A DNA stretch of 64,000 nucleotides from Candidatus Latescibacterota bacterium (GCA_965207885.1 OZ242311.1:5056001-5120000); one strand, 5' to 3'. Numbered from the stretch's first letter, positions 2,025-61,494 are shown. Notes: a model not told the origin generated them from the letters alone. Numbers and translations are program-made.

Positions 2025-3593
2025 TCAGAATAACAACAAACCCAACCCCACGCTGTACTCCATTCCACTATAATCCGTTTGCCCATCCACCGGCACAGCA
2101 AAAGGCTCGACAAACCGATTATAGCCTATGCGTCCACCCAGAACAAAAGACTTCAAAAACGGCACATCCAGTCCACCACCCCAATACAACCCATTCACTT
2201 CATCGACATTCTCATCCAATACTTTACCCGTGTACCGACCAACGCCTCCTTCGGCATAAGGGCGCAGAGGTGAACGCCACATATTCAAAGGCATATAAAT
2301 ACGCAGACTGACCAGCTCAGATGACACGCCTGCTTTTTTTTCATCGTCAGCAAACGAAAATCCCGAACGAGAATAATTGATCGAAACATGTTCTGTGGGC
2401 CAGAATCCAAAAATCCAGGCTTTGCTATCATCCCCCAGTTGCCATGCGCCCCTGCTGCGTTCAAGACGCCATCTGCCGGATAGCCTGTGTGGATAGCGGG
2501 CAGATGTCCCGGTTGTTGGCTTCCTCAACGCAGGCCCTCGGCTCGTGGTTTTTTCGCGCACTTGAGAGCGAAAATGCCGATTCTCAAGCAAAAACCGCTC
2601 ACCCTTTTTTAACGCGACCTTTGAATGCAACAATTGCATTCGGTGTTCAAAATGAATGTCATAAACCTCGGGTTCCAATCCCAACTCGAGCGTTTGCCCG
2701 GCGGTCTTGTCCAGCTCTGCCACCAGTTGCTCCTGCGAATTGCGCACAAAAAATCGGCCATTCAACTCATCCGACAAAATCAAACTCGCCGATGTCTCTC
2801 GCACATCGGTCATCACCACATCGCCTGTACCCGTCATCTTAATATCATAAGCCGGATGCTGCGCCCCTCCCTGAGTTTTTTCGGTTCGCTTCAGCGTATT
2901 GCGAAATGCAAACGCATACGCTTCGCTGAGTGTCACCTTGCCATCACCAGTCACATCTGCTGCACCCCGCAAGCCAGACACCAGATAATGCGTGAAAAAC
3001 GATCCGCGAATGCGATCCGATTCTTGTGCAGCCTCATTTTCGGAACTCGAAGTCAAAAACGCATACCCCCGCATATCCGACGACGTATCGACCATAAAGG
3101 CTTTTTGCCTTTGCCCGCCTTTCAGGCGCGTAATAGCGCCCGAAGCACACGCATCGAGCACAGTAATATGCACATCCGCCTGAACGCTATTCATTGCATC
3201 GCGCAAAGCGCGATAGGTCAACCGATCTTCTCCCAACAGCAACCCATTTTCATCGGCATGCCCCGAATAATACAGGACAACTTCGATGCGACTCGACGAT
3301 TGGGATGCTTTTATAACCCGAGATTGCAAATCCATCAAAACCCGTTTAAAATTTTCCAAACTCGGCTCGGCCAATAAAAATTGATCCTCAGATTCAACTC
3401 CCCCCATCATCTCTAAAACACGAGCAAAATGTTTTGCATCCGATACGGCATAACGCAGAGGTATGCGTTTCTCCCCACCAAAATTTGCGCCAGCCGCCAA
3501 CACAAAACGCCGCACAACCTGTGATGCCTCAATTCCCTGAGCACATAACAGCAGACCGATCCCCAACAGTACTACCCATCGGCGCAACATCAC
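2025..3593 (-). CDS. Signal-peptide caspase-family (C14) protease with C-terminal outer-membrane beta-barrel
   Basis: Intact His-Cys dyad motifs LYYSGHA and VLDACASG; SFFTHYLVSGLRGAAD; DG.VTLSEAY; C-terminus of alternating beta-strands ending GLGLLLF. Confidence 0.85.
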   Translation of the reverse strand: MMLRRWVVLLGIGLLLCAQGIEASQVVRRFVLAAGANFGGEKRIPLRYAVSDAKHFARVLEMMGGVESEDQFLLAEPSLENFKRVLMDLQSRVIKASQSSSRIEVVLYYSGHADENGLLLGEDRLTYRALRDAMNSVQADVHITVLDACASGAITRLKGGQRQKAFMVDTSSDMRGYAFLTSSSENEAAQESDRIRGSFFTHYLVSGLRGAADVTGDGKVTLSEAYAFAFRNTLKRTEKTQGGAQHPAYDIKMTGTGDVVMTDVRETSASLILSDELNGRFFVRNSQEQLVAELDKTAGQTLELGLEPEVYDIHFEHRMQLLHSKVALKKGERFLLENRHFRSQVREKTTSRGPALRKPTTGTSARYPHRLSGRWRLERSRGAWQLGDDSKAWIFGFWPTEHVSINYSRSGFSFADDEKKAGVSSELVSLRIYMPLNMWRSPLRPYAEGGVGRYTGKVLDENVDEVNGLYWGGGLDVPFLKSFVLGGRIGYNRFVEPFAVPVDGQTDYSGMEYSVGLGLLLF

Positions 3594-4348
3594 CTGCCCC
3601 CTTTATAAAGCGTAATGGCAAATTGCTCAAACCCTCTTCCCACTTGCAATGAATCGGGACCGCCCTTTGCCGCTTGTGCCACATCGCGCACGTCAAAAGA
3701 CATATCTGCTGTCAAAAAATAAAACCGTTCCCACTTTGGGGCATCATCCAGTTCGTAAGAATAATCCAGAGACACCGGATCGCCCTGTATCAAGCGCACG
3801 GCACTTGTTCCCGATGAGGGCAAATGCCGCGTCACAGTGCCGCGCCCATCCACAGACACAATCACCCCAAAAGGCTTGCCCGCCGCGCGATAAAAAATCT
3901 GAATCAAATCGCCTGTATAAGCCACACTGCTATCCGACAATTGTTCAATCTCAGACGCCCTTTTTCGATACAACAACAAATCCGGCTTTACGCCTTTTAA
4001 CCGAATGCCATCCATCCCTTTCCGATCCCAGGGTGGCGGCACTTCAGGCCCCGGTAAATAGATCGAAAAAACAACGGCGAGCAAAATCACAGCGGCCAAT
4101 GCCAAACGCGGACCGAACCGCGATATACTCGGCACCCCTCGCCTCTCCGACCGGCGCGCAACCTGCCGCGCAACCCACTCAGTCGGATAGGACGCGTGAA
4201 TTTCTCGATCTGACCCTTCCAATGCCTCCAGGCGCGCTCTCAAATCCGGGTCCTCATCCAGCGCCCTTTGAACAGCTCTCATTTCTTCTTCCGGCAATTC
4301 ATTCAGCCGAAAACGCTCCAGTTTCCAATCACCGCGTTGTCTCCTCAT
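3590..4348 (-). CDS. ActD-like putative anti-sigma factor (N-terminal helical domain, one TM helix, periplasmic DUF4384-like domain)
   Basis: DWKLERFRLNELP N-terminus, TM LALAAVILLAVVFSIYL and RLKG motif, as in myxobacterial 'ActD-like' proteins; overlaps the ECF sigma stop and the caspase start by 4 nt each. Confidence 0.7.
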   Translation of the reverse strand: MRRQRGDWKLERFRLNELPEEEMRAVQRALDEDPDLRARLEALEGSDREIHASYPTEWVARQVARRSERRGVPSISRFGPRLALAAVILLAVVFSIYLPGPEVPPPWDRKGMDGIRLKGVKPDLLLYRKRASEIEQLSDSSVAYTGDLIQIFYRAAGKPFGVIVSVDGRGTVTRHLPSSGTSAVRLIQGDPVSLDYSYELDDAPKWERFYFLTADMSFDVRDVAQAAKGGPDSLQVGRGFEQFAITLYKGGR

Positions 4349-4818
4349 AGATCCTCCAACTTCTCCAGCGATTCTCGCAACCCCCGCAACCGTTTTCGCA
4401 CTCCAGAAACCGACATACCAACCTCCCGAGCGACTTCCGCCAATGTGAAACCATCCACAAAATGTAAAACCGCAATTGTTCGCGTCGAATCTCTGTGCCG
4501 GGCAAAAAGCCGGTCGAGCATCGCCCGAGCATCCAACCGCGATTCCAGATCTTCAATCCCAGCAATGTGTATCAACTTCTCATCACCCGGCAGATCGAGC
4601 CGCTGATCGCGAATGCGATTCAAACACACATTGGTCGCAATGCGATATAGCAAACTCGACGGATAGGTCGCTTTCAGACGATCCCGGCGTTGCAATACCC
4701 GCACAAAAACATCTTGCATGGCATCCATGGCGCGATCTTCATCTCGCAACAACCGCCGACAGCGACGCAACACCATAGGACCGTATTTTTGATATAACAA
4801 TTCGACATTCATAAACAA
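4345..4818 (-). CDS. ECF-type RNA polymerase sigma factor
   Basis: Region 2 (AMDAMQDVFVRV..LLYRIATNVCLN) and region 4 HTH (GFTLAEVAREVGMSVSGVRKRL). Confidence 0.92.
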   Translation of the reverse strand: MFMNVELLYQKYGPMVLRRCRRLLRDEDRAMDAMQDVFVRVLQRRDRLKATYPSSLLYRIATNVCLNRIRDQRLDLPGDEKLIHIAGIEDLESRLDARAMLDRLFARHRDSTRTIAVLHFVDGFTLAEVAREVGMSVSGVRKRLRGLRESLEKLEDL

Positions 4819-13520: not shown

Positions 13521-13557
13521 TGGTCTCTTTCGCCAGCACACATGGCGATTTTTACCA
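13521..13557. promoter_or_regulatory. Candidate paired enhancer (UAS) sites for a sigma-54 activator
   Basis: TGGTCTCTTTCGCCA (13521-35) and TGGCGATTTTTACCA (13543-57): two TGG-N9-CCA boxes in inverted arrangement, 22 bp apart, about 110-130 bp upstream of the predicted sigma-54 start. Confidence 0.5.
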
Positions 13558-13632
13558 ACTTTATCAATCCACCCCATTTCTCAAAAACATCTATGTATAT
13601 AAAAAACAACATTTAAGATCACATCGCACTCA

Positions 13633-13648
13633 TGGCATAGACTTTGCA
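13633..13648 (+). promoter_or_regulatory. Sigma-54 (-24/-12) promoter of pspA
   Basis: TGGCATAGACTTTGCA matches TGGCAC-N5-TTGCW with exact GG-N10-GC spacing, 70 bp upstream of pspA. Confidence 0.85.
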
Positions 13649-13717: not shown

Positions 13718-14395
13718 ATGGCACGCGGAATTTTTTACAGAATGGCCGACATCGTCAAAGCCAACGTCAACGACCTGATCACCCGCGCAGAAGACCCGGA
13801 AAAAATGATCCGCCAGATGATTCTGGAAATGGAAGAAGCCGTCAACAAAGCCACAGCCTCAGTCGGCACGGCTGTAGCCAATGAAAAACGCCTGGAAAGA
13901 CAATATCTCGAAAAACAAGATCAAATCGAAGCATGGCAAAAAAAAGCCGAATTAGCCGTTGAAGCTGGCGAAGACGACCTTGCACGCCGCGCCCTCGAGC
14001 GCAAAGCTGCAAATCAGGAAGCCACGCACGACCTTGAAGTCGCCCTCGAAGAAAGCCGTAAAACCTCGTCCCAACTCAAACAACAACTCACCCAACTCAA
14101 AGCCAAACTCGACGAAGCCCGCACCCGCCAGGGCACCCTGATTGCTCGCCGCCGTGCAGCCGAAGCCCGCAAGCAAATCGCCAGGGGCCTCTCAGGAGTG
14201 GGTGAAGATGCTTTTTCGAGCTTTGAACGATTCCGTCAGCGCATCGAATCCGAAGAAGCAGAAGCAGAAGCCCATCAAGAAATGGCGAGTGCCGACCCCT
14301 CTCTGGAAGAAGAATTTTCCAAACTCGAGCGCAAAAGCACAGTAGAAGACGAACTCAGTGCGCTAAAAAAGAAAATGGGACAAAAAGATGCGTGA
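13718..14395 (+). CDS. pspA: Phage shock protein A (PspA/IM30)
   Basis: GIFYRMADIVKANVNDLI..AEDPEKMIRQMILEME, A..A..AG.DDLARRAL, FERF..RI, VEDELSALK; RBS AAGGAG. Confidence 0.95.
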   Translation: MARGIFYRMADIVKANVNDLITRAEDPEKMIRQMILEMEEAVNKATASVGTAVANEKRLERQYLEKQDQIEAWQKKAELAVEAGEDDLARRALERKAANQEATHDLEVALEESRKTSSQLKQQLTQLKAKLDEARTRQGTLIARRRAAEARKQIARGLSGVGEDAFSSFERFRQRIESEEAEAEAHQEMASADPSLEEEFSKLERKSTVEDELSALKKKMGQKDA

Positions 14396-15056
14396 CCTGG
14401 AAAAACTCGCCGATGAAATCGCCAGCAAAATTGACCGCGCGGTCAACGACGCGGAGCGAAAAATAAAAAAGAAATGGAAGGGAAATTGGGAGGCGCGCGT
14501 TCACAGTGCGAGCAGCGATTTCCAAACCGCAACCAATTCATTTAAGCGCGTGCCCGACCGCCTCTCTGACCTCGCCACCGATGGGAGTTGTGCCATGCGT
14601 TATCTCTTCGCTTATGGCTTAATAGGAATGGCTGCACTTATGGGATTTTGCGGCCTCATGCTCGTACTCATTACACTGGTAGAACATCCCCCCTGGGCAG
14701 ACACAAACCCATTCAGGCACGAAGAACTCAGTGCTGGCCTCTTTATAATCGTATTCTCTCAACTTATATGGTGGGCAGGTCGCAGGATCAAAAGATCGGG
14801 AGACAAAAAAGCACATGCCAAAAATCAGCACCGCATACTCCGTCTCGCCCGGGAAAAAGGGGGCAGCCTCACCGTGACAGAAGCCGCCATGGACACCAGA
14901 ATAACAGTTGAAAAAACCGAAGAAATCCTGCGGGAATTAACCATAAGTGGTCATGCGGAAATGCGAATCTCAGATTCCGGGCTGGTCGTTTACCATTTTC
15001 CGGAAATCGAACGCTGGGATGAAAAACACCGCGCGAGACCCGTGGATGAACTCTAA
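14388..15056 (+). CDS. Membrane protein: N-terminal coiled coil, two TM helices, C-terminal winged-helix-like domain
   Basis: Overlaps the pspA stop; two hydrophobic segments; ILRLAREKGGSLTVTEAAMDTRITVEKTEEILREL..GLVVYHF has a wHTH pattern. Confidence 0.75.
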   Translation: MRDLEKLADEIASKIDRAVNDAERKIKKKWKGNWEARVHSASSDFQTATNSFKRVPDRLSDLATDGSCAMRYLFAYGLIGMAALMGFCGLMLVLITLVEHPPWADTNPFRHEELSAGLFIIVFSQLIWWAGRRIKRSGDKKAHAKNQHRILRLAREKGGSLTVTEAAMDTRITVEKTEEILRELTISGHAEMRISDSGLVVYHFPEIERWDEKHRARPVDEL

Positions 15057-15077
15057 TGTGTGTGGGAGGACAAAATA

Positions 15078-15275
15078 ATGTTTGAAATTGGAATCATGGT
15101 AGCAATAATCATTCTCGCATCAGCGGCATACAAATACGTTGAGCGCCGAACCCGAGGATCCGTCCCCAGCGATGCAGAAGAACGTATAAACGCCAGAATG
15201 GACGAACTCGACCGCAGGCTCACAGATATTCAGGACGTCATGATCACCATCGACGAAAAACTCAGCAGGAGATAA
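15078..15275 (+). CDS. Small PspB-like membrane protein (one TM plus coiled coil), copy 1
   Basis: RBS GGAGGA before ATG 15078; TM followed by RMDELDRRLTDIQDVMITIDEK. Confidence 0.7.
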   Translation: MFEIGIMVAIIILASAAYKYVERRTRGSVPSDAEERINARMDELDRRLTDIQDVMITIDEKLSRR

Positions 15276-15286
15276 GGAGGGGTAAA

Positions 15287-15520
15287 ATGACTAATGTTAT
15301 CGGTGTCACAGTTGGTGGCATATTGATGATCATAATTGTAGGAGCCATTGCATCAGCAGTACACAAATACATTGATCGTCGCACCAAAGGATCCATCCCC
15401 AGCGATGCGGAAAAACGCTTGAATGAGCGAATGGACGAACTCGACCGCAGGCTCACGGACATTCAGGACATCCTCATCACCATTGACGAAAAATTCGACC
15501 GGTCACCCATCACGCGCTAA
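15287..15520 (+). CDS. Small PspB-like membrane protein, copy 2
   Basis: RBS AAGGAGG; near-identical C-terminus RMDELDRRLTDIQDILITIDEK; DNA-level similarity to copy 1. Confidence 0.75.
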   Translation: MTNVIGVTVGGILMIIIVGAIASAVHKYIDRRTKGSIPSDAEKRLNERMDELDRRLTDIQDILITIDEKFDRSPITR

Positions 15521-15543: not shown

Positions 15544-15906
15544 ATGCGTATCTTTCTTACAATCGTAGTTGGTATTAGCTTGATGACTCTTGCAAGCGGT
15601 ACAGTCGCCTATATTCTCCATGACCCAACATTTGGAGGAGGTCTCGTCCTTGCAGCAGCTTGGGGTGCTATGGCGTTCATTACCTTTTTTGCCATCACAT
15701 TCACATTTGGATCAGAACAAGAAGAAAGAAACAGATCGACAAAAAACAACAACCTGTCTGAAAAACTTTCAAAACGCGTGAAAGAACTCGAAAAACGCCT
15801 CATCGACCTTCAAGACATCGTCATCACCAACGACGATAAACTCGAGCGTCTTAACAACCAATCATCCGTTGCGCCATCTCCACCTCCGCGGACCATCTCG
15901 GATTGA
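15544..15906 (+). CDS. PspB-like membrane protein with two TM helices, copy 3
   Basis: RBS GGAGG; C-terminal RVKELEKRLIDLQDIVITNDDK is the same motif as copies 1 and 2. Confidence 0.7.
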   Translation: MRIFLTIVVGISLMTLASGTVAYILHDPTFGGGLVLAAAWGAMAFITFFAITFTFGSEQEERNRSTKNNNLSEKLSKRVKELEKRLIDLQDIVITNDDKLERLNNQSSVAPSPPPRTISD

Positions 15907-15942
15907 TGGACAGCCTCACACCTCCTGAAAAAAGGACACCCC

Positions 15943-16113
15943 ATGTTGGCAAAACTCATCGGCATCGTGCTCATCATAATCGGCGGCATTTTCGCCATCC
16001 AGGTTCTCTTTCCGCTCATCGGCTCTCTATTTGAGCTAATCTTTCTCCTGCTCAAACTCGCCATCGCCGTTATATGTATTGGGATCGGTTATCGCTTGAT
16101 CAAAAGAGACTGA
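15943..16113 (+). CDS. 56-aa two-TM hydrophobic protein (PspG-like size and topology)
   Basis: Manual translation MLAKLIGIVLIIIGGIFAIQVLFPLIGSLFELIFLLLKLAIAVICIGIGYRLIKRD with AAAGGA RBS; below the ORF-track cutoff. Confidence 0.75.
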   Translation: MLAKLIGIVLIIIGGIFAIQVLFPLIGSLFELIFLLLKLAIAVICIGIGYRLIKRD

Positions 16114-16171
16114 CGGAAAAATCCGTCTTGTCACAAACAAAAGAATAGTAATAAACGAATTACCTTAACGA

Positions 16172-16762
16172 ATGGAGAAAAAAGTGAAAACACAGGATCA
16201 AAACCTGATTCGCGCATCCCTCTCGGGTGACCGCCGGGCATTTGAAACGCTCTACCACAAATATCAAAGTCAGATCTACGGCACCCTCGCACAGCGCATT
16301 TCAGACCGCGACACCATTGACGACCTGATGCAAGACACATTTTTTCGCGCCTATCGCTCGCTCCACACATTCAAAGGCCAGGCGGCATTTTCGACCTGGC
16401 TCACGCAAATTGCCCTCAATGTCTATCGCTCGTACCTGCGCTCGCAGCAAGTGCGGCAAAACTGGGTCTATCAAACCGAAGACCCCGAAGTCGTACACAA
16501 CGTCCTCCGCGACCTCATACCCGGCGCGCTACCAGACCAGATTGTAGAAAAACGCGAACGCATACAATTGGTCCACAAAAGCATACAAAACTTGCCCGAA
16601 CGCTATCGCAAAGCCATGTGGCTGCGCTACGTCATGGACTGGTCCTACGAAGAAATCACACAGGCGCTTCGCGTTCCGCTTGGAACCGTAAAAACCTGGC
16701 TGTGCCGCGCCCGCCGCCAACTCAAAAGCGAATTTCGCAAACTCGGTTTACAACCCGGATAA
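16172..16762 (+). CDS. ECF sigma factor (RpoE/SigW-like)
   Basis: GDRRAFETLY, DLMQDTFFRAY..F.GQAAFSTWL..IA.N, SYEEI..L.VPLGTVKTWL.RAR. Confidence 0.93.
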   Translation: MEKKVKTQDQNLIRASLSGDRRAFETLYHKYQSQIYGTLAQRISDRDTIDDLMQDTFFRAYRSLHTFKGQAAFSTWLTQIALNVYRSYLRSQQVRQNWVYQTEDPEVVHNVLRDLIPGALPDQIVEKRERIQLVHKSIQNLPERYRKAMWLRYVMDWSYEEITQALRVPLGTVKTWLCRARRQLKSEFRKLGLQPG

Positions 16763-16862: not shown

Positions 16863-17465
16863 ATGCAGGCATGGTGGTCAGAACTCGCGCCTCTCACTCA
16901 GGTATTCTATGGCTGTGCCGTCTTCTTCACCCTTTTGTTTCTCTGGCAATTTATCACGACACTCATGGGCCTGGGTGATTCCGCGGACGTCATGGACCAT
17001 GACAGCTTCAATGCCAACGATGCGGGGCCAGATGTCGATAATAGTCCTTATGATCACGGTACCGCCACCTTTCAACTGCTCTCACTGCGCTCTGTGATCG
17101 CCTTTGGCATGCTCTTTGGATGGGCAGGCGCACTCTATCTCGACTCGGGACATTCAACCGAAGATTCGGTTCTTCGCGGCCTCATATGGGGCGGCGCGGG
17201 GATGGTCCTGGTTGCATATTTCTTCTACAAAGTGCAACAACTCTCCGAATCGCATAACCGAAACCTATCGTCCTGCATCGGCAATGAAGGCGAAGTCTAT
17301 ATCGACATTCCCGAAAATGGCGCCGGTCAAATCCGCGTGATGGAAAGCGGGGCTGTCAACTACATCTCTGCGCGCAGCAGAGACGGGCAACCCATCCAGA
17401 ACAAAACGCCGGTTCGCGTACTGCGAACACTCGACATAACCACAGTTGAAGTCGAACCCATTTAA
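16863..17465 (+). CDS. NfeD-like (YuaF-type) membrane protein
   Basis: N-terminal TM helices, C-terminal OB-fold pattern IGNEGEVYIDIPENGAGQIRV; immediately upstream of flotillin. Confidence 0.85.
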   Translation: MQAWWSELAPLTQVFYGCAVFFTLLFLWQFITTLMGLGDSADVMDHDSFNANDAGPDVDNSPYDHGTATFQLLSLRSVIAFGMLFGWAGALYLDSGHSTEDSVLRGLIWGGAGMVLVAYFFYKVQQLSESHNRNLSSCIGNEGEVYIDIPENGAGQIRVMESGAVNYISARSRDGQPIQNKTPVRVLRTLDITTVEVEPI

Positions 17466-17487
17466 TCCTGAACTTAAAGGAGGGACA

Positions 17488-19074
17488 ATGCCCACCGAAT
17501 TCATTCTCACCGTACTCCTGGCAGCCGTTGTACTTCTGCTATTCCTCACATTCATCTCGCGTTACAAGCGCTGTCCATCCAACAAAATCCTCGTCATCTA
17601 CGGAAAAACGGGAGGTGGCACAGCCGCAAAATGTGTACACGGCGGCGCAGCTTTTGTCCTGCCCTTATTGCAGGCCTACGACTACCTCGACCTCGAACCC
17701 TTTGTCGTACCCATTGACCTGGACAACGCGCTTTCACAGGAGAACATCCGCGTATCCGTCCCCACCACAGTCACAGCAGCCATCTCTAATCAGCCCGGCG
17801 TCATGCAAAACGCGGCCATCCGCCTTTTGGGCCTGTCCCGCGATCAAGTTCAGAGCCAGGCACAGGACATCATCCTCGGCCAGATGCGCGCAGTCATTGC
17901 AACCATGCAAATTGAAGAAATCAATCAGGACCGACAGGCATTCATGACCAAAGTAAATGATGCCGTCTCCACTGAAATGGAAAAAATTGGTCTGGCCGTT
18001 ATCAACGTCAACATCAAAGACCTCGACGACGAAAGCGGCTACATCAAAGCCATCGGTCAAAAAGCAGCAGCCGAAGCCGTGAACCAGGCATCTATCGACG
18101 TGGCCGAACAAGAACGACACGGACAGGTCGGCGTGGCCGAACGCGCACGCGACCGCCGTCGGGATGTCGCCGCAGCCGAATCAGAAGCCGAAGTTGGCGA
18201 AGCAGAAGCCGCGCGAAACAGACGGCGACAGGTCGCCGCACTTGAATCAGAAGCTGAAATCGGCGAATCAGAGGCCGCGCGAGATAGACGACGACAAGTT
18301 GCCGCACTCGAATCAGAAGCCGAAATTGGCGAAGCACAGGCCGGGCGAGACAAACGCCAAAATGTCGCCGCTCTCGAAGCAGAAGCCGTACAATCAGAAA
18401 CAGAAGCAGAAGCAAAAACAGCGGGCTATCGCGCGGGACAACGCGTTGCAGAAGAAGAAGCGCGCAGAAAATCAGAAGAAGCGACCAAAGCCACAGACGG
18501 TGCCATTCGCGTTGCCCAGGAAACCGCTGAAAAAGCAGCCGAAGACGCCCGAGCACTGCGCGAAGAAGCGCGCTTACGCGCAGAAATCGTCGTCCAGGCA
18601 GAAGCCGAAAAACAGCGCCAGGTCGTTCAAGCAGAAGCCGAAAAAGAACAGCTACGGCTTATTGCCGAAGGTGAAGCCGCCGCTATCCTCGCACAAAAAC
18701 AGGCCGAAGCCGAAGGGACTCAGGCCATTCTCAACGCCAAAGCCGAAGGATACAGACAACTCGTTGAAGCCTGTGGCAGCAACGACCAGGCAGCAGCAGC
18801 CTTTCTGATCATCGAACGCCTCACCGAAGTCGCCAACATCCAGGCCGAGGCCATTAGCAACTTGCCCATCGACAAAGTGATGGTCTGGGACAGCGGCAAT
18901 GGCGAGAGTGGCATGTCCAACCTGGGACAACGCCTCATGGGTGCCATACCGCCCATGCACGATCTGGCGCGCCTGGCCGGGCTTGAATTACCCGAATTTT
19001 TGGGCAAAATGAACGGCGAACAAACGGCAGGGGAAAACGGCAAATCCGACACCTCAGAAGACGCAGAGGCGTAG
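17488..19074 (+). CDS. Flotillin/SPFH-domain protein (FloT-like)
   Basis: TM, RYKRCPSNKILVIYG, SPFH domain (GQMRAVIATM.IEEIN.DR..F), EA-rich coiled coil; RBS AAGGAGG before ATG 17488. Confidence 0.93.
   Translation: MPTEFILTVLLAAVVLLLFLTFISRYKRCPSNKILVIYGKTGGGTAAKCVHGGAAFVLPLLQAYDYLDLEPFVVPIDLDNALSQENIRVSVPTTVTAAISNQPGVMQNAAIRLLGLSRDQVQSQAQDIILGQMRAVIATMQIEEINQDRQAFMTKVNDAVSTEMEKIGLAVINVNIKDLDDESGYIKAIGQKAAAEAVNQASIDVAEQERHGQVGVAERARDRRRDVAAAESEAEVGEAEAARNRRRQVAALESEAEIGESEAARDRRRQVAALESEAEIGEAQAGRDKRQNVAALEAEAVQSETEAEAKTAGYRAGQRVAEEEARRKSEEATKATDGAIRVAQETAEKAAEDARALREEARLRAEIVVQAEAEKQRQVVQAEAEKEQLRLIAEGEAAAILAQKQAEAEGTQAILNAKAEGYRQLVEACGSNDQAAAAFLIIERLTEVANIQAEAISNLPIDKVMVWDSGNGESGMSNLGQRLMGAIPPMHDLARLAGLELPEFLGKMNGEQTAGENGKSDTSEDAEA
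18148..18390 (+). repeat. About 3.7 copies of a 66-bp (22-aa) tandem repeat within flotillin
   Basis: RDRRRDVAAAESEAEVGEAEAA / RNRRRQVAALESEAEIGESEAA / RDRRRQVAALESEAEIGEAQAG / RDKRQNVAALEAEAV. Confidence 0.85.
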
Positions 19075-19096: not shown

Positions 19097-20335
19097 ATGT
19101 CCAACACCCTGAACATAGCCACAGACATAGAATCTCGTTTCCAAATGGCGCTGCAACACGCACGCGGGGCAGCGCCAGGCTCGGGCGACTACAAAAAAGC
19201 GGTTGAACACCTCGAATACATTTTGTCTGTCGATGACCAGAGCGAGGAAATGGACCGCGTCTGTTTTTTGTTGGGCAGCCTGCTCGACGACTTTCCAGAA
19301 AACGCATCTCGAGCCATTGCCGTTTACCGCCGGGGTTTGGAAGCCGATCCCCTCTTTGCGCCCGGGCACAACAACCTGGGCGTTTTGCTCATGCAAGATG
19401 GGCAAATCCTATCGGCTCTTGGCGAATTTAAAATCGCCGTACACCTCGAACCCGATTACATGCTCCCCTATCGCAACCTCGCCCGATTGCTCTTTCAACA
19501 CATGAGCCCGGCACAAATGGAACGCGAATACGCAAGCATCACCGAAGAATTTGGCGTTAGAGCATCGCGCATTCTCGCCCGCCTATCTCTCGAACTCATA
19601 GACCTTGGGCGCGCACAGGTCTATGAAAGCCTCTACACGCACGGCCATCGCATCAAAAACCTGATGGGTCTCTCCGGCAGCCGAATGCGTCGCGCCATAC
19701 GCAATTTACCGCCAAATACCGACGGTTTGGATGATCTGAAAGACATCGCAAACGAACAAGAACACATCTACAGCCAATGGGTTGCCTACTTGCGGTCTAT
19801 GAAACAAGACACTATGAATCCCGCGCTGGTCGATGTGTCCCAACTCATTGAAAAAATGACCCACAGACTCTCTGCACAAGCAGGGGACAAAGAACTCATC
19901 TTTGCCGCCGAACCTCATGTGCCTCAGGTAAAAGCGGACGCTGGCATGTTATCTGAAGCCGTCACAAACCTGACCCTCAACGCCATCGAAGCCGTTGAAA
20001 ATAATGGCGTGGTGAGAGTACAGGTCGGTGCCGATACAGAGCGCAGTTCGGTTTATATTGAAGTGGAAGACAATGGCCCCGGCATTCCCGAAAATTTGCA
20101 AACCCGCATATTTGACCCCGGATTTTCAACGCGAGAAAGGGGCAATGGCTATGGGCTGAGTATATGCTCTCGCATTGCAGCGGCACACCGCGGTACGTTG
20201 CGCGTGATCAGTCGTCCGGGTGCAGGCGCGGTTTTTCGCATTGACCTACCCATCGATTTTGAAGTCTCAACACAACACGACAGCATTGGCCTGCAACACA
20301 ACGTACCCGATACCTCGCGCGATCCAAATAGCTGA
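19097..20335 (+). CDS. Soluble TPR-containing sensor histidine kinase
   Basis: TPR helices (AIAVYRRGLEADP..HNNLGVLL..AVHLEP), H-box GHRIKNLMG, N-box NLTLNAIEA, DNGPGI, G.GYGLSI; no TM segment. Confidence 0.88.
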   Translation: MSNTLNIATDIESRFQMALQHARGAAPGSGDYKKAVEHLEYILSVDDQSEEMDRVCFLLGSLLDDFPENASRAIAVYRRGLEADPLFAPGHNNLGVLLMQDGQILSALGEFKIAVHLEPDYMLPYRNLARLLFQHMSPAQMEREYASITEEFGVRASRILARLSLELIDLGRAQVYESLYTHGHRIKNLMGLSGSRMRRAIRNLPPNTDGLDDLKDIANEQEHIYSQWVAYLRSMKQDTMNPALVDVSQLIEKMTHRLSAQAGDKELIFAAEPHVPQVKADAGMLSEAVTNLTLNAIEAVENNGVVRVQVGADTERSSVYIEVEDNGPGIPENLQTRIFDPGFSTRERGNGYGLSICSRIAAAHRGTLRVISRPGAGAVFRIDLPIDFEVSTQHDSIGLQHNVPDTSRDPNS

Positions 20336-20362
20336 AGAATTTATTCAATAAGACCCTCTCCC

Positions 20363-21772
20363 ATGACTGAAATTATCGTTGCTGACGACCAGATAGAAGT
20401 CCTCGACATGCTGATTCGAAGCCTGCGGGAAGACACGCGCAAGGTCCATGCCTTCTCTACCGGACGCGAAGCTCTGGCATATCTGCAACAGCATCCCAAT
20501 CAGATTGGCCTGGCCATTCTCGACCTCGATTACGGACCCGATGAACCCGATGGCCTCGAAATTTTGCCACAAATGCTCGAATCGGTTCCCGACCTGCCCG
20601 TCATTATGCTCACCGGACAAGGCACAATAGACACTGCCGTGGCTGCACTGCGATTGGGCGCAACAGACTTTATTGAAAAAGACTTTTATATCGAAGACAA
20701 AATCGAACTCAGCCTTGAAAAACTCGACCGCGTGTATCAAGCACTTAAGGAAAACGCCCAACTGCGGGCCGAAGTTCAGGACCTGGGGCGCGAAAACCAA
20801 TTCTACCGAGACGAATTTGGCAAGCGTTATCAAATCATCGGCTCCAGCCCCAAACTCCAGCAAATCCTCCAGCGAGCGCAAACCGTAGCTCCCATCCCCC
20901 GGCCCGCGCTCATCACGGGAGAACCCGGCACGGGCAAAGAACTCGTCGCCGCGGCCATCCACTATGGCAGTGACCGCAAAGACCGTCCCTTTGTCAAAGT
21001 CAATTGCGCCGCCATTGCCGACCAATTGCTCGAAAGCGAACTCTTTGGACACGAAAAAGGGGCTTATACAGGCGCGACAGAAGCCCGCACGGGCAAATTT
21101 GAAGCCGCGAGTGGCGGCACCCTGTTCCTCGATGAAATCGGCAACACCACCCCCGAATTTCAGCAAAATGTGTTGCGAGCCATTGAATATAGCGAAATTC
21201 AGCGCGTGGGCAGTGCGACACCCATCTTTGTCGATGTTCGCGTTATTGCCGCCACGAATACCGACCTCGAAACGGAAATTGCCGAAGGTCGATTCCGCCA
21301 GGACCTCTACGACAGATTGCGCTTTGAAGTCTTGCACATGCCCCCGTTGCGCGAACGCCGAGAAGACATTCCCGCATTAGCCGATTATTTTGTCGCACAA
21401 ATCGTCGAAGAAGTACCAGGCCTGCAAAAACGCGATTTTTCCGATGCGGCAACAGAACGCCTGATGACATATAGCTGGCCGGGCAATGTGCGCGAACTCA
21501 AATTTGCGGCCGAACGCGCGGCCTGTGTCGCCCGAGGGACAGAGATTGAACCGGGCGATTTGCCCCCCGAAGTTTCTCAACAAGCGCCCCAATCACCCGA
21601 ATTGAACGACGGTTTTGAATCACAAGTGCAATCCTATGAACTGAGTCTATTGCGGCGCATTCTCGATAAAGTCTCCTGGAACCAGCGCGAAGCCGCCAAA
21701 CAACTCAAACTCAGCTACGACCAATTTCGCCACCTGTACCGCAAATATAAACTCAACAAAGAAAAACCCTGA
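20363..21772 (+). CDS. Sigma-54-dependent response regulator: receiver domain, PspF-like AAA+ domain and HTH
   Basis: Receiver ADD..LDL..T..K; GEPGTGKE, ELFGHEKGAYTGA, LFLDE, WPGNVREL; PspF-like DLYDRLRFEV and NQREAAKQLKLSYDQFR. Confidence 0.93.
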   Translation: MTEIIVADDQIEVLDMLIRSLREDTRKVHAFSTGREALAYLQQHPNQIGLAILDLDYGPDEPDGLEILPQMLESVPDLPVIMLTGQGTIDTAVAALRLGATDFIEKDFYIEDKIELSLEKLDRVYQALKENAQLRAEVQDLGRENQFYRDEFGKRYQIIGSSPKLQQILQRAQTVAPIPRPALITGEPGTGKELVAAAIHYGSDRKDRPFVKVNCAAIADQLLESELFGHEKGAYTGATEARTGKFEAASGGTLFLDEIGNTTPEFQQNVLRAIEYSEIQRVGSATPIFVDVRVIAATNTDLETEIAEGRFRQDLYDRLRFEVLHMPPLRERREDIPALADYFVAQIVEEVPGLQKRDFSDAATERLMTYSWPGNVRELKFAAERAACVARGTEIEPGDLPPEVSQQAPQSPELNDGFESQVQSYELSLLRRILDKVSWNQREAAKQLKLSYDQFRHLYRKYKLNKEKP

Positions 21773-22208
21773 TTGCTATGGCTCTCGACATCCCTGTTCG
21801 GGCAAATCTCCAATTCTTTCGTTGTCTCAACGACAGCATATCTTCCTGGGCGAGCCACCTGCCCATTTTGTTCCTCGCTTCATTTTTGGCAATACTCCTG
21901 AGTGCGGTATCGGGCACTTTGCTCCTGGGCAGCTTATATGCTGGCTTTGCCATCATGACCTTGCGCGCGCAGCAAGGAGCAAAACCCCGCATGCGAGATC
22001 TATTTGGGCAGATCATTCGTTTCGTCCGTTTTTTCTCGATGAATATTTTCATCTTCCTATTTTTTATTATCGGTTTAGTCATCATTGCGGTACTGGTTTT
22101 TATGAGCAGCGATTTCTTTGCATTTCTGCTCAATGCATTCAAACAGGTCATTGCCCAGGAAACGCCTTGGGCTATCCCCTTTGGCTCAGAACACATTGGA
22201 AAATTCTT

Positions 22209-23406
22209 CATAGTACACGACAAAAAATAAAAGACCTGTGAAAAAAGCTAAAAAGAGTTAGGTTTGAATGTCCCAAGACAAACCTTTCTCATCTTAACAA
22301 GGCACAGGTCTATGTCTCCTGAAACTATTGAACTTCAAACGATTATGCAAGGATATTTTCACTGGCATAAAGCCCGAATAACGTTTACCGCTGCGTTCAT
22401 ATTGTCGCTGATAAAATTGCGTAGCGTCAATTTTATGAAACTGGCAAACGCACTCAATGGAACCGTCAAGCAGAAATCTAATTATCGTCGTATCCAACGC
22501 TTCTTTGCCCACTTTGCCTTACCCTATGCGTGTGTGAGACAATTGATCTTGCACTTATTACCTATAAAGTCGGATTTTATAGTCTCAATAGATCGCACCA
22601 ATTGGAAGTTGGGAAAATTCAATATCAACATCCTAACCGCAGGCATTATCTATGAAGGGGTCGCCTTTCCTATCTGTTGGCACTTGTTAAAAAAACGGGG
22701 CAATTCCAATAGTGATGAGCGTATCCATTTGATGCAAGAAATGCTCAACTGCATCTGCAAATCGCATATCCGCGTTGTCGTCGCAGACAGAGAATTTATT
22801 GGAAGAGAATGGTTTAGGTGGTTAGACACACAAAATATACCCTTTGTTATTCGCATCAAGGAAAACGCTCTTGTCTCATCAGGCGGTAGAGAGATCCCCA
22901 TAAGAAAACGGTTTGAAAATCTTAATATCCATCAGCAGGTCAACTTGTGCAAACGCCACCGCGTTTATGACCTGCCTGTATATCTGTCTGCACTAAGATT
23001 GAAGGACCAATACCTCATTCTTGCCAGCAACCAAAAAGGTCAAGCCGCATTGGATACCTATAAAAAACGATGGGGCATTGAAGTCCTTTTTGCCAATCTT
23101 AAAAGTCGAGGATTTAATCTGGAAGAGACCCATCTTATACATCAAGACCGCATTGAGAAACTCATCGCGCTTTTGGCCATTGCCTGCATCTGGGCGCATA
23201 TCATCGGCGAATGGATAGCAAAAACAAATCCTTTGACGATCAAAAATCACGGGCGGATGGAGAAAAGTCTCTTCCGATATGGGTTGGACTATTTGCAGTA
23301 TGTCCTGCTCAATATAAACCAACAAACCCAACAGTTCCTCATATGCATTCGTTTACTGAGTAATCCGCCACTGTTTAAAACAATTTAAGTTTTGTCGTGT
23401 ACCATG
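22209..23406 (+). mobile_element. IS4-family insertion sequence, copy 1 (1198 bp)
   Basis: TIRs CATAGTACACGACAAAA / TTTTGTCGTGTACCATG; 9-bp TSD AAAATTCTT (22200-22208 and 23407-23415). Confidence 0.93.
22312..23388 (+). CDS. IS4-family DDE transposase
   Basis: IDRTNW, ADREF and YKKRWGIEVLF (YREK-type) motifs; ATG at 22312 is conserved in copy 2. Confidence 0.93.
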   Translation: MSPETIELQTIMQGYFHWHKARITFTAAFILSLIKLRSVNFMKLANALNGTVKQKSNYRRIQRFFAHFALPYACVRQLILHLLPIKSDFIVSIDRTNWKLGKFNINILTAGIIYEGVAFPICWHLLKKRGNSNSDERIHLMQEMLNCICKSHIRVVVADREFIGREWFRWLDTQNIPFVIRIKENALVSSGGREIPIRKRFENLNIHQQVNLCKRHRVYDLPVYLSALRLKDQYLILASNQKGQAALDTYKKRWGIEVLFANLKSRGFNLEETHLIHQDRIEKLIALLAIACIWAHIIGEWIAKTNPLTIKNHGRMEKSLFRYGLDYLQYVLLNINQQTQQFLICIRLLSNPPLFKTI

Positions 23407-24558
23407 AAAATTCTTAGAAGAAAAAAATCTCTTTTGGGCCGTCATTCTGGTAGCTTGTCTCTTATTTTTGCCAGGCCTCGTTTTTGTTGTCAAATGCTTC
23501 TACATCTATCTTCTGGCAGCAGACCGGGGGGTACACATCGATGAAGCTTATGTCGAAAGTCGCAAAGCCGTAGAACGCTACGGTTTCTTTCGCCACTGCG
23601 CGCTTATACTCACCGCGCTCGGAATTCTTGTCGGCTCAGTGATACTCGTCGAGAACATCGTCGATAATACCTTCGCCACATTCTGTGTCTTTGTTCTCTT
23701 TCAACCCCTCGCGCTCGGGATTTTTGCATCGGCCTACAACCAGACCCTCTGCGAAGAAGCGCGACAGTGGGAAAGCTACAAACAACAATTTTCGGAAATG
23801 CGCGATGAATTGCAAACAGCGCACGACATGCAAATGGGTCTATTGCCGCAATCCAGTCCCGACCTGCCGGGTTTTGCACTCGACGGAACCTGTATTCCCG
23901 CCAACAGCGTCGGCGGGGATTACTATACGTACCGCTGGTTGGATGAAGACAAAACAAAACTCGGCATCGTCGTTGCCGATGTCTCTGGCAAAGCCATGGA
24001 AGCAGCCGTGACCGCCGTGCGTTTCAATGAAATGCTCCGCTATGAATGCCAAAATCGCGTTGTACCAGCCGATATTCTCGACGGTCTTAATGACTCACTG
24101 GAAGGTCAGATTGACCAGGCCACATTTATTACCTGCTGCATCGCTGTGCTCGACGTACCCACCGGCGAAGTCACGCTTGCAAGTGCAGGACACTGTCCAC
24201 CGATCCATCTATCCAATCAATCTCAATTTATCGACCTCGCGGGATATCCCCTTGGCATCCCGGCACTTATACGCCCCCAAACTCCCTATCGAGTTGAGCA
24301 TTTAACACTCGCGCCCGGTGATCGCCTCATATTATACTCCGATGGTGTCGTCGAAGCCCAAAATGCCAAACGCAACTTCTTTGACGACGACCGATTTATA
24401 CGTTGCCTTGAACGCGCATCCATAGACCGGACACCCACAGACCTGATTGCCGATCTCGTCGCCGATGTCAAATCCTTTATTGGCAAAGCGCGGCGCACCG
24501 ACGACATAACCCTCGTTATTCTCCAGCGCGATTTATCCCTTAACTCCTGACCCATCTC

Positions 24559-58206: not shown

Positions 58207-59863
58207 AATGTGATTCTCCGCGCAACTTGCACTACTTTTGAGACTTAAAAAACCGCAACGTATCTGCTGGCGTATTGGGCGCAACACCTTCGGGCAGAAC
58301 GAGAGTGACAGCCCCATCAGAAGTATCGGCAATACCGCTCCGCAAATTCACAGTATGCGCGGCAACTTCTGCAGGCGTGATAAAGTCCCGCGACGGTTTA
58401 CCTATACTTTTCATAAACGCAGCCCATATCGGTGCAGCACCACTCCCGCCGGTAATCTGGCGTCTGCTCCTCTTCTCGATCAGCCTGCGGCCACCCTCGC
58501 GGTTGTCAAAACCAATCCACACACTGGCGACCAGGTCGGGTGTAAAACCCGTGAACCAGGCATCCGTATTGTCATTTGTAGTCCCAGTTTTCCCCGCAGC
58601 AGCACCCTGAAACCCAAACGCGCGAATCGCGCGACCCGTGCCGTGGTTGACAACATGCTGCATCAAATTGACCATAATCACCGCATGTTCGGGATCGACA
58701 ACGAGCATGGGATTTGGTCGATGCTCATAGTGTATTTCCCCTGTAGTATCCTCAATCCGCGCAATAAACGTCGGCATCACGCGAAAACCGTAAAGGGCAA
58801 TCGCGCCATAGGCAACCGCCATATCGAGCAACGTAACTTCCTGTGCGCCCAGGGCAATACTGGGATACGGTCTGAGCCGACTCTGAATACCCAGACGCTG
58901 AGCCAGATCGACAATGCGTTCGGGACCTATCTCCATTGCAATTTGCACACTCGTCGCATTTGCCGACTTGACCAGTGCATTCGCCGCAGTGGTAAGCCCC
59001 AGATACTGGTCTGCAAAATTCCTGGGCGACCAGTCCTCATCGTTTACGCGATAGGTGCGCAACGTATCATTAAAAAGAGAAACCGGCGAAAAAGCACCGC
59101 TTTCAAAAGCCGCCAGATACACAAAAGGCTTAAAACCCGAACCCGGTTGACGCCGCGCTTGCGTGGCCCGGTTGTAATAACTGATAAAAATATCGCGCCC
59201 ACCCACCATCGCTTTGACATATCCAGTGCGCGGATCCAGGCAGATCAACGCACCCTGGACATAATCGGCGCGCTGATCAGATGATGCACTGCCATACTCT
59301 GAAAAACCCAGACGCGCATCCAGATCCGCCAAACCCCTGGCCACGGCTCGTTCGGCAGCCTGTTGCATAGACAAATCGAGCGTCGTATAAATATTCAAAC
59401 CGCCAAAACTCAGCGCCGACGCCCCCCACAGGCGTGTAACCTCGGCTTTAATCGTCTCGACAAAGTACGGAGTCCGATTCTGGGGCATACGTCCAGAAAC
59501 GAGTTTCAAATCCGAAGCCAGTGCATCCTGGACTTCCTCTGAACGAATAAAACCCAATGCCTGCATGCGGTTTAAAACGAGCGTAGCACGCGCCAGAACG
59601 CGAGATTGGTCTTTGCGAAAAGGATTGAGCACACTCGGCGCATTGGGAAGCCCTGCAAGTATTGCAGATTCGAGAAGCGTAAGATCCGCGGCGCGCTTGC
59701 CAAAATAAGTCTGCGCTGCATCGGCAATACCATAAGCATTGGCACCGTAAAAACTGCCATTGATATAAATCTCGAACAATCGGTCTTTATAGCCCGCACC
59801 ATAGTGGCGTTCAAAAAGGGCTTCGAGTTGTGTAGCGAGAAGAATTTCTTTTAACTTTCGCAC

Positions 59864-61060
59864 TAAAGTACACGACAAAAAATAAAAGACCTGTGCAAAA
59901 CGTGAAAAAGAGTTAGGTTTGAATGTGTGAAAACGAACCTTCTCATCTCAACAAGGCACAGGTCTATGTCTCGTCAAGTTATACAACTTCACCATGTATT
60001 GCAAGGCCATTTTGGGTGGCATAAAGCACGCATCACTTTCACAGCGGCCTTCATCTTGTCTTTGGTCAAGCTGAGCAGGGTCAACTTCGCCAAATTGGCT
60101 AATGCGCTAAATGGACAGGTCAAACCGCAATCAAATTACCGCAGGATACAGCGTTTTTTCGCTGAGTTTGACATTCCTTATGAAGCCGTGACGCGACTGA
60201 TCTTGCACTTATTACCTATAAAGACCGATTTTGCAGTCTCAATAGATCGCACTAATTGGAAGTTAGGCAAATTCAATATCAACATCCTAACCGCAGGCAT
60301 TATCTATGAAGGGGTCGCCTTTCCTATGTGTTGGCACTTGTTAAAAAAACGAGGCAATTCCAATAGTGATGAGCGTATCAATTTGATGAAACAGGTGCTT
60401 ACGCGCATTCCCAAGTCTCATATCCGCGTTGTATTGGCAGATAGAGAATTCATTGGAAGAGAATGGTTTGCGTGGTTAGACACACAAAACATCCCTTTTG
60501 TCATCCGCATCAAGGAAAATGCCCTTGTCTCAAGGGCAGATAGAGAGATACCCATAAAAAAACTCTTTGAAAATTTGCACATCCATCAGCAGGTCAGCCT
60601 ACAAAGACCTCGCCGCGTTTATGACCTACCTGTGTATGTGTCTGCGCTAAGATTGAAGGATCAATACCTCATTCTTGCAAGCAACCAACAACGTCAAGTC
60701 GCATTGGAGGTGTATAAAAAACGTTGGGGCATTGAAGTCCTTTTTGCAAATTTGAAAAGTCGAGGATTTAATCTGGAAGAGACCCACCTTATACATCAAG
60801 ATCGCATTGAAAAACTCATCGCGCTTTTGGCTATTGCCTGCACCTGGGCCCATATCATCGGCGAATGGATCGCCCTTACAAAACCTTTGAAGGTCAAAAA
60901 CCACGGACGGATGGAAAAAAGTCTCTTCCGATATGGGTTGGACTATTTGCAGTATGTCCTGCTCAATATACACCAACAAGCCCAGCAGTTCCTCAAATGC
61001 ATTCGTTTACTGATTAATCCGCCAGATTTTAACCCGATTTAGGTTTTGTCGTGTACTATG
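59864..61060 (+). mobile_element. IS4-family insertion sequence, copy 2 (1197 bp)
   Basis: TIRs TAAAGTACACGACAAAA / TTTTGTCGTGTACTATG; 9-bp TSD CTTTCGCAC (59855-59863 and 61061-61069). Confidence 0.93.
59966..61042 (+). CDS. IS4-family DDE transposase (diverged paralogue of 22312-23388)
   Basis: IDRTNW, ADREF, YKKRWGIEVLF; collinear with copy 1 but with many substitutions. Confidence 0.93.
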   Translation: MSRQVIQLHHVLQGHFGWHKARITFTAAFILSLVKLSRVNFAKLANALNGQVKPQSNYRRIQRFFAEFDIPYEAVTRLILHLLPIKTDFAVSIDRTNWKLGKFNINILTAGIIYEGVAFPMCWHLLKKRGNSNSDERINLMKQVLTRIPKSHIRVVLADREFIGREWFAWLDTQNIPFVIRIKENALVSRADREIPIKKLFENLHIHQQVSLQRPRRVYDLPVYVSALRLKDQYLILASNQQRQVALEVYKKRWGIEVLFANLKSRGFNLEETHLIHQDRIEKLIALLAIACTWAHIIGEWIALTKPLKVKNHGRMEKSLFRYGLDYLQYVLLNIHQQAQQFLKCIRLLINPPDFNPI

Positions 61061-61494
61061 CTTTCGCACATAAAACTTTTCTCGCGTGAGAAAAATATTT
61101 TTCACAATCTGCTGCGTGATCGTGCTGCCGCCCCGCACCCTGCCCCAGTGTCGAATATTGCCCAAAAAAGCACCGGCCATACCTTTAATACTGTACCCGC
61201 GGTGATGATAAAAATCCGCATCTTCAATAGATAGCACAGCCTGAACAAAATGCGGATGCACCTCGTCGAGACCAACGCGCCCCACGCGTTGATTAACAGT
61301 ATAGAGCAACTCTCCAGAAGCCGCATAAATATTGATCCCGGACTCCGCCAATAAGCTATCGGGATCCTCGGGCAACCTCGGCAGGGTAATCACAAGCCAG
61401 CATGCTGCGCCCAACACAATCAGCAAAACATCGGCAATGATCAAAAGAGCGAGAAAGACGCCGCGATGTGAGATTAATTTCATAAGATACGCCA

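Follow-up and report, generated by a model that had tools for sequence, protein, structure and literature searches.

How is the phage-shock operon regulated where its PspF-like activator is joined to a receiver domain? PspF is the textbook enhancer-binding protein that lacks a regulatory domain; it is controlled in trans by PspA, and the Trp56 loop of canonical PspF is the PspA docking site. The locus considered here, from Candidatus Latescibacterota bacterium (GCA_965207885.1 OZ242311.1:5056001-5120000), lies in a 64,000-nucleotide (nt) stretch of DNA, referred to below as the window, whose positions are used throughout. It combines pspA with a sigma-54 activator bearing an N-terminal receiver and with a soluble histidine kinase bearing tetratricopeptide repeats (TPR). 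All of the evidence is computational. Its comparative part supports well the existence of a conserved Latescibacterota variant of the phage-shock system in which the receiver-bearing activator and the TPR kinase would control the sigma-54 promoter of pspA. That a dedicated two-component system regulates this operon in place of the PspA-PspF anti-activator mechanism of E. coli is probable.

A receiver-bearing activator of PspF lineage

The gene cluster occupies the + strand of the window at 13.4-22.3 kb and runs from pspA through the gene of a small membrane protein that follows the regulator. The open reading frames of the kinase and the activator, 27 nt apart, fall exactly where a preliminary description of this DNA, made from the sequence alone, had placed them:

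19097-20335, + strand: soluble TPR-DHp-CA histidine kinase (TPR, dimerization and histidine phosphotransfer, catalytic and ATP-binding domains; His184), 412 amino acids (aa).
20363-21772, + strand: REC-AAA+-HTH (receiver, AAA+, helix-turn-helix) sigma-54 activator of the PspF-like clade, with Asp54 as acceptor, a GAYTGA loop and Lys at the Trp56 position, 469 aa.

Pfam bears out the N-terminal receiver claimed in that description (Response_reg, residues 4-111, E 2.5e-17) and places Sigma54_activat (PF00158) at residues 158-321 (E 4.5e-65) and AAA_lid_14 (E 2.5e-24) after it. The DD pair, Asp54, Thr and Lys that define a receiver align with NtrC D11/D12, D54, T82 and K104; they are kept in all nine Latescibacterota rows of the alignment used below, leaving the phospho-acceptor pocket complete. 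The sigma-54 contact loop (residues 233-238), of the GAFTGA type found in the sigma-54 interaction domain of the NtrC family, has Tyr at its third position (GAYTGA) in the window protein and one close relative, the remaining seven Latescibacterota rows having GAFTGA. At the C-terminus, BLASTP pairs residues 432-464 with the PspF HTH; Pfam HTH_8 finds no match there at E <= 0.001, and PF02954 is carried by several homologues of the activator. The alignment with E. coli K-12 PspF (43% identity, 138/321, E 3e-86) extends through the HTH and pairs PspF SSRWQGP with SDRKDRP in the activator, exactly as had been noted, Lys standing at the position of Trp56.

Descent of the AAA+ domain was judged from a maximum-likelihood tree of 76 rows and 251 AAA+ columns (IQ-TREE in careful mode; a quick version was also made), comprising 13 Latescibacterota-type homologues, 11 E. 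coli activators and 52 representatives. Tandem-AAA+ proteins and fragments had been dropped beforehand, 141 of 174 sequences being kept, and of the kept representatives the 45 best-scoring and all 12 short ones were used. The window protein and E. coli PspF share a 37-row clade (ultrafast bootstrap 100, SH-like approximate likelihood ratio test 100), inside which the former belongs to a 9-row Latescibacterota clade (100/93) and the latter to a 7-row canonical clade (100/99). The other ten E. coli activators (NtrC, AtoC, ZraR, GlrR, NorR, FhlA, HyfR, TyrR, PrpR and RtcR) all lie outside. The AAA+ domain thus groups with PspF and apart from all of these, and the PspF affinity that had been proposed survives the phylogeny, with no grouping with generic NtrC or AtoC. 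Among NCBIfam models the top match of the window protein is TIGR02974 (PspF), even though that model draws no score from the receiver. The same model is top for eight, and listed for all, of 11 other receiver-bearing members of the clade; it is absent at E <= 1e-95 from all 11 representatives outside the clade, and its cut-off is passed by five of six canonical short representatives. Because the tree places it with PspF and the TIGR02974 test agrees, the activator is, as far as sequence can tell, PspF-like by descent; it is not a PspF equivalog.

Several points weigh on the other side of this placement. The activator stays under both PspF equivalog cut-offs (344.8 against 443.55 bits for TIGR02974, 284.4 against 529 for NF008622), so that of the PspF assignment by TIGRFAM scoring the rank held and the threshold did not. 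Raw similarity by phmmer is a tie between PspF (259.4 bits) and ZraR (259.0), and a PDB search puts ZraR first (269.9), then NifA (253.9) and PspF (243.3), with NtrC4 also close. The tree representatives were picked by similarity to the query, and its bootstrap stopped short of full convergence (correlation 0.980). As to raw similarity, the best 150 matches from 1.84 billion representatives form a plateau at about 265 bits over all architectures, with tandem-AAA+ proteins first by summed score; given this plateau, the tie and the mixed PDB order, ranking by raw similarity was rejected as uninformative. With canonical PspF the activator shares its location, near a pspA with a predicted sigma-54 promoter and enhancer; it does not share the equivalog score, the absence of an N-terminal regulatory domain or the Trp56 loop.

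JGI and NCBI give its homologues unspecific names ("NtrC family response regulator", "ATP-binding protein"), and the whole-protein NCBIfam scores for NtrC and AtoC come near the PspF score. Both would suit a generic NtrC-family two-component system that lies beside pspA and regulates unrelated genes. The 100/100 support for membership of the AAA+ domain in the PspF-like clade argues against such a system, and so does the arrangement of the locus (below).

The promoter and enhancer of pspA

If the activator controls pspA, its sites should be sought in front of that gene, where the following features are found:

13521-13535, + strand: upstream activator site 1, dyad TGGTC-N5-CGCCA, candidate site for the activator HTH, an exact match to TGGY-N7-RCCA.
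13543-13557, + strand: upstream activator site 2, dyad TGGCG-N5-TACCA, candidate, 22 bp from site 1.
13604-13616, + strand: weak A/T-rich motif resembling a site for integration host factor (IHF), between enhancer and promoter, by a relaxed pattern.
13633-13648, + strand: sigma-54 (-24/-12) promoter of pspA, TGGCATAGACTTTGCA, 69 nt upstream of the start codon.
13718-14395, + strand: pspA, PspA/IM30 family (PF04012), ESCRT-III-like effector.

The site TGGCATAGACTTTGCA, previously proposed as the target promoter, is indeed a conserved sigma-54 site upstream of pspA. The comparison covers 75 upstream regions, those of the window and of 74 related loci (one further locus, L069, was dropped, its pspA lying 47 nt from a contig end). 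Each of the 75 contains a GG-N10-GC site at a distance of 47-94 nt upstream of the start codon, and in 73 it matches at least 9 of the 11 specified consensus positions. The significance of the promoter derives from this conservation across loci and not from the pattern match itself: the sigma-54 pattern is not enriched in the window (26 matches with at most two mismatches, 36.8 expected). A generic scan for sigma-70 promoters and terminators gave nothing above shuffled expectation.

Approximately 90-125 nt upstream of the promoter, in related loci at about -112 from it, lies the dyad TGGY-N7-RCCA. At least one exact copy is present in 63 of 73 upstream regions and two copies, 21-22 bp apart, in 40 of the 73; the background is 0.024 per 130 nt, about 60-fold below what is observed. 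Four further matches are scattered over the 64 kb of the window. In E. coli the pspF-pspA intergenic region has TGATGAAATTCGCCA 100 nt and TAGTGTAATTCGCTA 80 nt ahead of its own sigma-54 promoter, a spacing of 20 bp. With a matrix built from 45 distinct Latescibacterota sites, TGATGAAATTCGCCA ranks 5 of 120,357 positions in E. coli loci; the matrix inherits the search pattern, so that this rank is supportive only. Likeness of the sites suggests that enhancer DNA specificity is conserved between the Latescibacterota loci and E. coli psp. It counts against this that the second E. coli site, TAGTGTAATTCGCTA, ranks only 162 of 120,357 and that 10 of the 73 regions have no exact dyad. Of the 73 upstream regions, 34 contain the relaxed IHF-like pattern, whose background frequency is 0.006 per 80 nt; having been picked after the sequences were viewed, it is a lead only.

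PspA itself matches PF04012 over residues 4-220 (E 1.4e-46), which makes it a PspA/IM30 protein. It scores 180.8 bits with TIGR02977, under the equivalog cut-off of 242.95.

A conserved five-gene core

Between pspA and the kinase, and after the regulator, the cluster holds these genes:

14388-15056, + strand: conserved membrane protein with two transmembrane (TM) helices and a C-terminal winged helix; core operon member, matching no known family.
15060-15275, + strand: small single-pass membrane protein with a conserved cytoplasmic helix; core, 74/78 loci; PspB-like in architecture only.
15287-15520, + strand: paralogue of the preceding protein, 63% identical to it.
15544-15906, + strand: two-TM protein with the same C-terminal helix motif, a third paralogue; accessory by tblastn across loci.
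16172-16762, + strand: extracytoplasmic function (ECF) sigma factor (Pfam Sigma70_r2 and r4_2); accessory insertion outside the conserved core.
16863-17465, + strand: NfeD-like membrane protein, partner of flotillin; accessory; weak Pfam NfeD match, E 0.0024.
17446-19074, + strand: flotillin/SPFH protein (PF01145, E 3.1e-27); accessory.
21778-22230, + strand: small multi-TM protein that follows the regulator in close relatives (15/16 close loci); membership in the system uncertain.

Which of these genes belong with the regulatory pair was asked of 78 loci, retrieved when the kinase alignment was run against 185,579 species genomes (kinase identity 44-97%) and classed by distance as 16 close, 30 mid and 32 far. 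The regulator follows the kinase in 77 of them, the miss (L041) being a contig end. Upstream and on the same strand, pspA is present in 75, and the three misses (L016, L024 and L073) are all cut by contig ends; the synteny with pspA anticipated in the preliminary description is thus general among the related loci. Homologues of the 14388-15056 protein lie ahead of the kinase in 76 loci and homologues of the 15060-15275 protein in 74. The far loci are compact, about 3.4 kb, the median distance between pspA and the kinase being 2150 nt, and consist of pspA, the two-TM protein, the small TM protein, kinase and regulator. Because these 32 loci hold those five genes only, the five, without flotillin, constitute the conserved core.

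The remaining genes come and go with distance. The ECF sigma factor is found in all 46 close and mid loci, NfeD in 36 and flotillin in 36 of the same 46, and each in none of the 32 far ones; by this distribution they are lineage-specific insertions outside the core. Flotillin, one of the inputs suggested earlier, is therefore rejected as the sensed partner: absent from every far locus, as are NfeD and the ECF sigma factor, it cannot be the conserved input. By tblastn the third paralogue is matched in 16/16 close, 15/30 mid and 1/32 far loci, and the small multi-TM protein follows the regulator in 15/16, 6/30 and 0/32. The ECF sigma gene, situated between the small membrane proteins and the kinase, has no recognizable anti-sigma factor as neighbour; the 16863-17465 product was considered for that part and rejected, as it looks NfeD-like (on the weak match listed above) and co-occurs with flotillin.

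This conservation returns the argument to the generic NtrC-family system posited above. Kinase identity falls as low as 44% among the loci, yet pspA stays syntenic in 75 of 78, the compact five-gene form included, which is not what a regulator of unrelated genes would lead one to expect; nor did the locus yield any conserved sigma-54 promoter and enhancer other than those before pspA. Already disfavoured, that account is now scarcely credible.

The kinase and what it may sense

That a TPR histidine kinase without a TM segment precedes the activator, as first described, is confirmed. The kinase has no 19-residue hydrophobic window. Its N-terminal 201 aa, scanned alone, pass the Pfam gathering scores of TPR_11 (29.0; cut-off 26.8), TPR_2 (28.8; 27) and TPR_17 (26.4; 24.4), which identifies them as TPR repeats, and HATPase_c covers residues 281-386 (E 1.4e-23). 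Pfam HisKA is not detected in the kinase. In the AlphaFold2 model (mean predicted local distance difference test, pLDDT, 80.1) seven helices at residues 4-135 are followed by two long helices forming a DHp hairpin (138-233) and an alpha/beta domain (243-385). The residues that make it a histidine kinase, His184 of the DHp hairpin and N291/N295, D325/G327/G329, F339 and G349/G351/G353 of the N, G1, F and G2 boxes, are invariant in all 25 aligned homologues, and Foldseek matches the model best to ZraS, CckA and HK853, in each case to the cytoplasmic core. Relatives of the kinase mostly have about 542 aa, with extra N-terminal TPRs; the close clade of the window protein has about 415. Its own 412 aa compare with 417-420 aa in relatives that are 95-99% identical, the last few residues differing, which is probably harmless. 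Homologues of kinase and activator come from metagenome-assembled genomes of Latescibacterota, some labelled Gemmatimonadota.

The input of a cytoplasmic TPR kinase is most likely a protein, and PspA is the candidate for which a complex was modelled, from an alignment of 20 for PspA and of 25 for kinase residues 1-160. The complex scores 0.66, the best of three controls 0.00; of 157 solved complexes 116 attain that mark, as do 2 of 215 mismatched pairs, a calibration that is rough here since our own alignments were used. Runs agree in at least 96% of contacts, the partner has a pLDDT of at least 81, and the predicted interface joins PspA 8-10, 41-62 and 105-123 to kinase 53, 78-87, 103-119 and 151. 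Conservation is higher at the interface than elsewhere, both in PspA (0.91 against 0.71, permutation p 0.0004) and in the TPR domain (0.79 against 0.58, p 0.0018). The structure prediction called for in the preliminary description comes out, for PspA, in favour: as a prediction, it supports binding of PspA by the TPR domain and does not show it. Some considerations temper it: positions conserved for the TPR fold as such could account for the interface conservation, the model may be biased toward conserved columns, and modelling covered one partner, PspA.

The membrane proteins of the core are the natural resort of an account in which the pair does control the psp operon while the TPR domain senses something else, PspA being output only. 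What it senses could be a part of a neighbouring membrane protein, either the cytoplasmic helix of the small single-pass proteins or the winged-helix tail of the 14388-15056 protein, or else a ligand not linked to the locus. In the core operon two membrane proteins equal PspA in conservation (76/78 and 74/78 loci), both with conserved cytoplasmic parts, and the Bacillus Lia kinase is controlled by a membrane protein and not by the PspA homologue. Nonetheless, the PspA-TPR model passed while all of its controls stood at 0.00, and its interface falls on clade-invariant residues of both proteins, so that an input other than PspA is judged unlikely.

The small membrane proteins had been called PspB-like, a likeness that does not go beyond architecture, an N-terminal TM helix and, after it, a short cytoplasmic one. 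They have no match to Pfam PspB (PF06667) at E <= 10, none of 18 family members matches it, BLASTP against PspB gives E 21 and hhalign a probability of 19.8%; homology to PspB, sought by these three routes, was not found. The three of them carry a common C-terminal helix motif, conserved in the alignment. The 14388-15056 protein matches no Pfam or NCBIfam family; its AlphaFold2 model (pLDDT 75.3) shows an N-terminal helix, a TM hairpin and a C-terminal winged helix, and Foldseek returns weak matches only, of ESCRT-II and MarR type at E of about 3e-3, with none at E <= 0.001. The first of these is human ESCRT-II (2zme_A, E 2.8e-3, TM-score 0.26), MarR-type regulators coming next; a winged-helix membrane adaptor beside the ESCRT-III-like PspA is an intriguing, unsupported lead. 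Protein atlas matches to this protein are unnamed clusters and likewise weak leads.

Trp56, the receiver and the direction of change

Trp at the position of PspF Trp56 is found in all seven canonical receiver-less rows of the tree, in none of the 30 other rows of the PspF-like clade and in none of the 39 rows outside it. A receiver is present in 27 of the 37 rows of the clade, and the Trp is missing from every one of these 27. The loss of the docking Trp that was noted early on thus holds, with Lys in the window protein and Trp specific to the receiver-less canonical clade. Mutual exclusion of this kind is the pattern to be expected if PspA docking and the receiver are alternatives.

Those observations bear directly on dual control, in which the receiver gates assembly and PspA still inhibits the AAA+ ring through a surface independent of Trp56. 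The PspF-like lineage of the AAA+ domain is in its favour, as is the good conservation of the PspA N-terminal region with E. coli PspA; confinement of the docking Trp to the seven receiver-less canonical rows, and its absence from the 27 with a receiver, is not, and dual control is very unlikely.

The receivers of the clade are themselves distinctive. The loop directly after the acceptor Asp is longer than that of NtrC in 26 of the 27 (in 25 by two residues) and is so extended in one of 19 receivers outside the clade. This extension being common to the clade, the receiver must have co-evolved with the AAA+ lineage. Since 27 of 37 rows have a receiver and 26 of 27 share the extension, the receiver-less E. 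coli type is more likely to be the derived one: probably the receiver is ancestral in the PspF-like clade and its loss, with the acquisition of Trp56, came later in the line of E. coli PspF; the tree does not fix where the clade is rooted. The "rewiring to phosphorylation" spoken of in the preliminary description therefore probably has its polarity reversed. Five rows of one subclade (P0271, P0275, P0278, P0281 and P0290) keep the receiver fold and have lost the acceptor Asp; these pseudo-receivers may represent intermediates toward receiver-independent control.

A bolder scenario can be offered tentatively, and with considerable doubt: canonical receiver-less PspF of proteobacteria would be an offshoot of an older receiver-bearing family whose ancestral type of circuit survives in Latescibacterota, with PspA binding the TPR domain of the kinase, and E. 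coli would later have lost the receiver and evolved Trp56 docking on the AAA+ ring. If so, PspA would be the first ESCRT-III-family protein known as a direct ligand of a histidine kinase. The occurrence of Trp56 only where the receiver is absent provides a testable account of the origin of the PspA-PspF anti-activator mechanism.

A proposed phosphorylation-gated psp circuit

The steps of the favoured circuit, control of pspA by the two-component pair, may be set out as follows. The kinase would autophosphorylate on His184 and pass the phosphate to Asp54 of the activator, which would then assemble on the two dyads and open the sigma-54 promoter of pspA. Activation would raise PspA and the two conserved membrane proteins, and also the kinase and regulator if the operon is read through. 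PspA is predicted to bind the TPR domain, which would place its feedback at the kinase and not at the AAA+ ring; membrane stress that recruits PspA to the membrane would free the kinase from it, with an effect that could be of either sign. Of the relay that had been envisaged in place of inhibition by PspA, the clade, the synteny, the loss of Trp56 and the TPR-PspA model sustain the central part; flotillin as input and homology to PspB have fallen away.

Some facts sit less comfortably with this circuit. There is no rpoN in the 64-kb window. A gap of 266 nt (15906-16172) precedes the ECF sigma gene and bears on read-through from the pspA promoter to the kinase in this locus. The 78 loci are essentially of one phylum, so that the synteny counts are not independent events.

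Other observations in the window

An IS4-family insertion element at 22200-23407 stands directly after the psp/two-component cluster; locus L001, 97% identical, lacks it, the two flanks adjoining there. It is related to a second element at 59867-61060 (84% identical over 1200 nt), which interrupts the gene of a class A penicillin-binding protein, leaving the N-terminal part of the transglycosylase domain at 61007-61495 and the remaining transglycosylase and the transpeptidase domain at 58232-59878. On the - strand, the gene of a caspase-domain (Peptidase_C14) protein (2025-3593) adjoins that of an Omp85-family protein (333-2012); upstream of the pair, at 4345-4818, lies a second gene of the sigma-70 family, which is ECF-like. 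The window has about 52% G+C and is asymmetric between strands over its whole length (GC skew -0.02 to -0.32, AT skew positive in nearly every 2-kb bin), independently of gene orientation.

Comparison with known systems

The Latescibacterota locus resembles three kinds of known system and differs from each. Like the PspF-PspA-PspBC systems of E. coli and Yersinia, it has a sigma-54 promoter and an upstream tandem enhancer driving pspA, with similar enhancer half-sites, an activator whose AAA+ domain is in the PspF clade (100/100) and whose HTH aligns with that of PspF, a PspA 38% identical to that of E. coli, and small membrane proteins after pspA. It departs from them in that the activator has a phosphorylatable receiver, lacks Trp56 and scores below the PspF equivalog cut-off; in that the activator gene closes the operon and is co-oriented with it, whereas pspF is divergent; and in the presence of a soluble TPR histidine kinase, PspB and PspC not being detected here.

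With NtrB-NtrC, AtoS-AtoC and ZraS-ZraR it shares a REC-AAA+-HTH regulator and an adjacent cognate kinase, whose core is most similar to those of AtoS and ZraS and, by fold, to cytoplasmic ZraS; ZraSR is an envelope-stress system too. The AAA+ domain, however, lies outside the NtrC, AtoC and ZraR groups and the receiver has a clade-specific loop extension after the acceptor Asp. The kinase input, unlike that of the NtrB/AtoS/ZraS type, consists of TPR repeats only, with no membrane, PAS or HAMP segment, and the target is pspA.

A PspA-family effector under a histidine kinase and response regulator pair is also what defines the Bacillus LiaFSR-LiaIH and actinobacterial PspC-kinase systems, and operons of this general kind are catalogued in PMC11237479 and PMC9239133. 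Those systems use membrane kinases, REC-wHTH (receiver and winged HTH) regulators and sigma-70-type promoters, in contrast to the sigma-54 activator and cytoplasmic kinase described here. In the available supplement of PMC11237479 all 11 "REC+" occurrences are REC+wHTH and all three NtrC-AAA entries are without a receiver. PspF together with two-component systems was left out of the dedicated analysis of that paper, whose supplement shows only REC+wHTH regulators and receiver-less PspF beside pspA. The Desulfovibrio PspF is treated as a single-component regulator in the accessible text of PMC4641369, and receivers go unmentioned in that of PMC3041696. A full-text literature search returned, in the portions of the literature it covers, no description of a receiver-fused PspF or of a TPR kinase beside pspA; the web application of PMC11237479 and the OpARA data of PMC9239133 may list such neighbourhoods.

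Set against these systems, the locus points to a coherent and conserved alternative to PspF control, apparently built on a promoter, enhancer and AAA+ lineage of the same kind, and gated by phosphorylation. The predicted TPR-PspA pairing provides a concrete candidate for a cytoplasmic kinase that reads the state of a membrane-repair protein, and sigma-54-dependent Psp regulation is extended to a candidate phylum without a cultured model.

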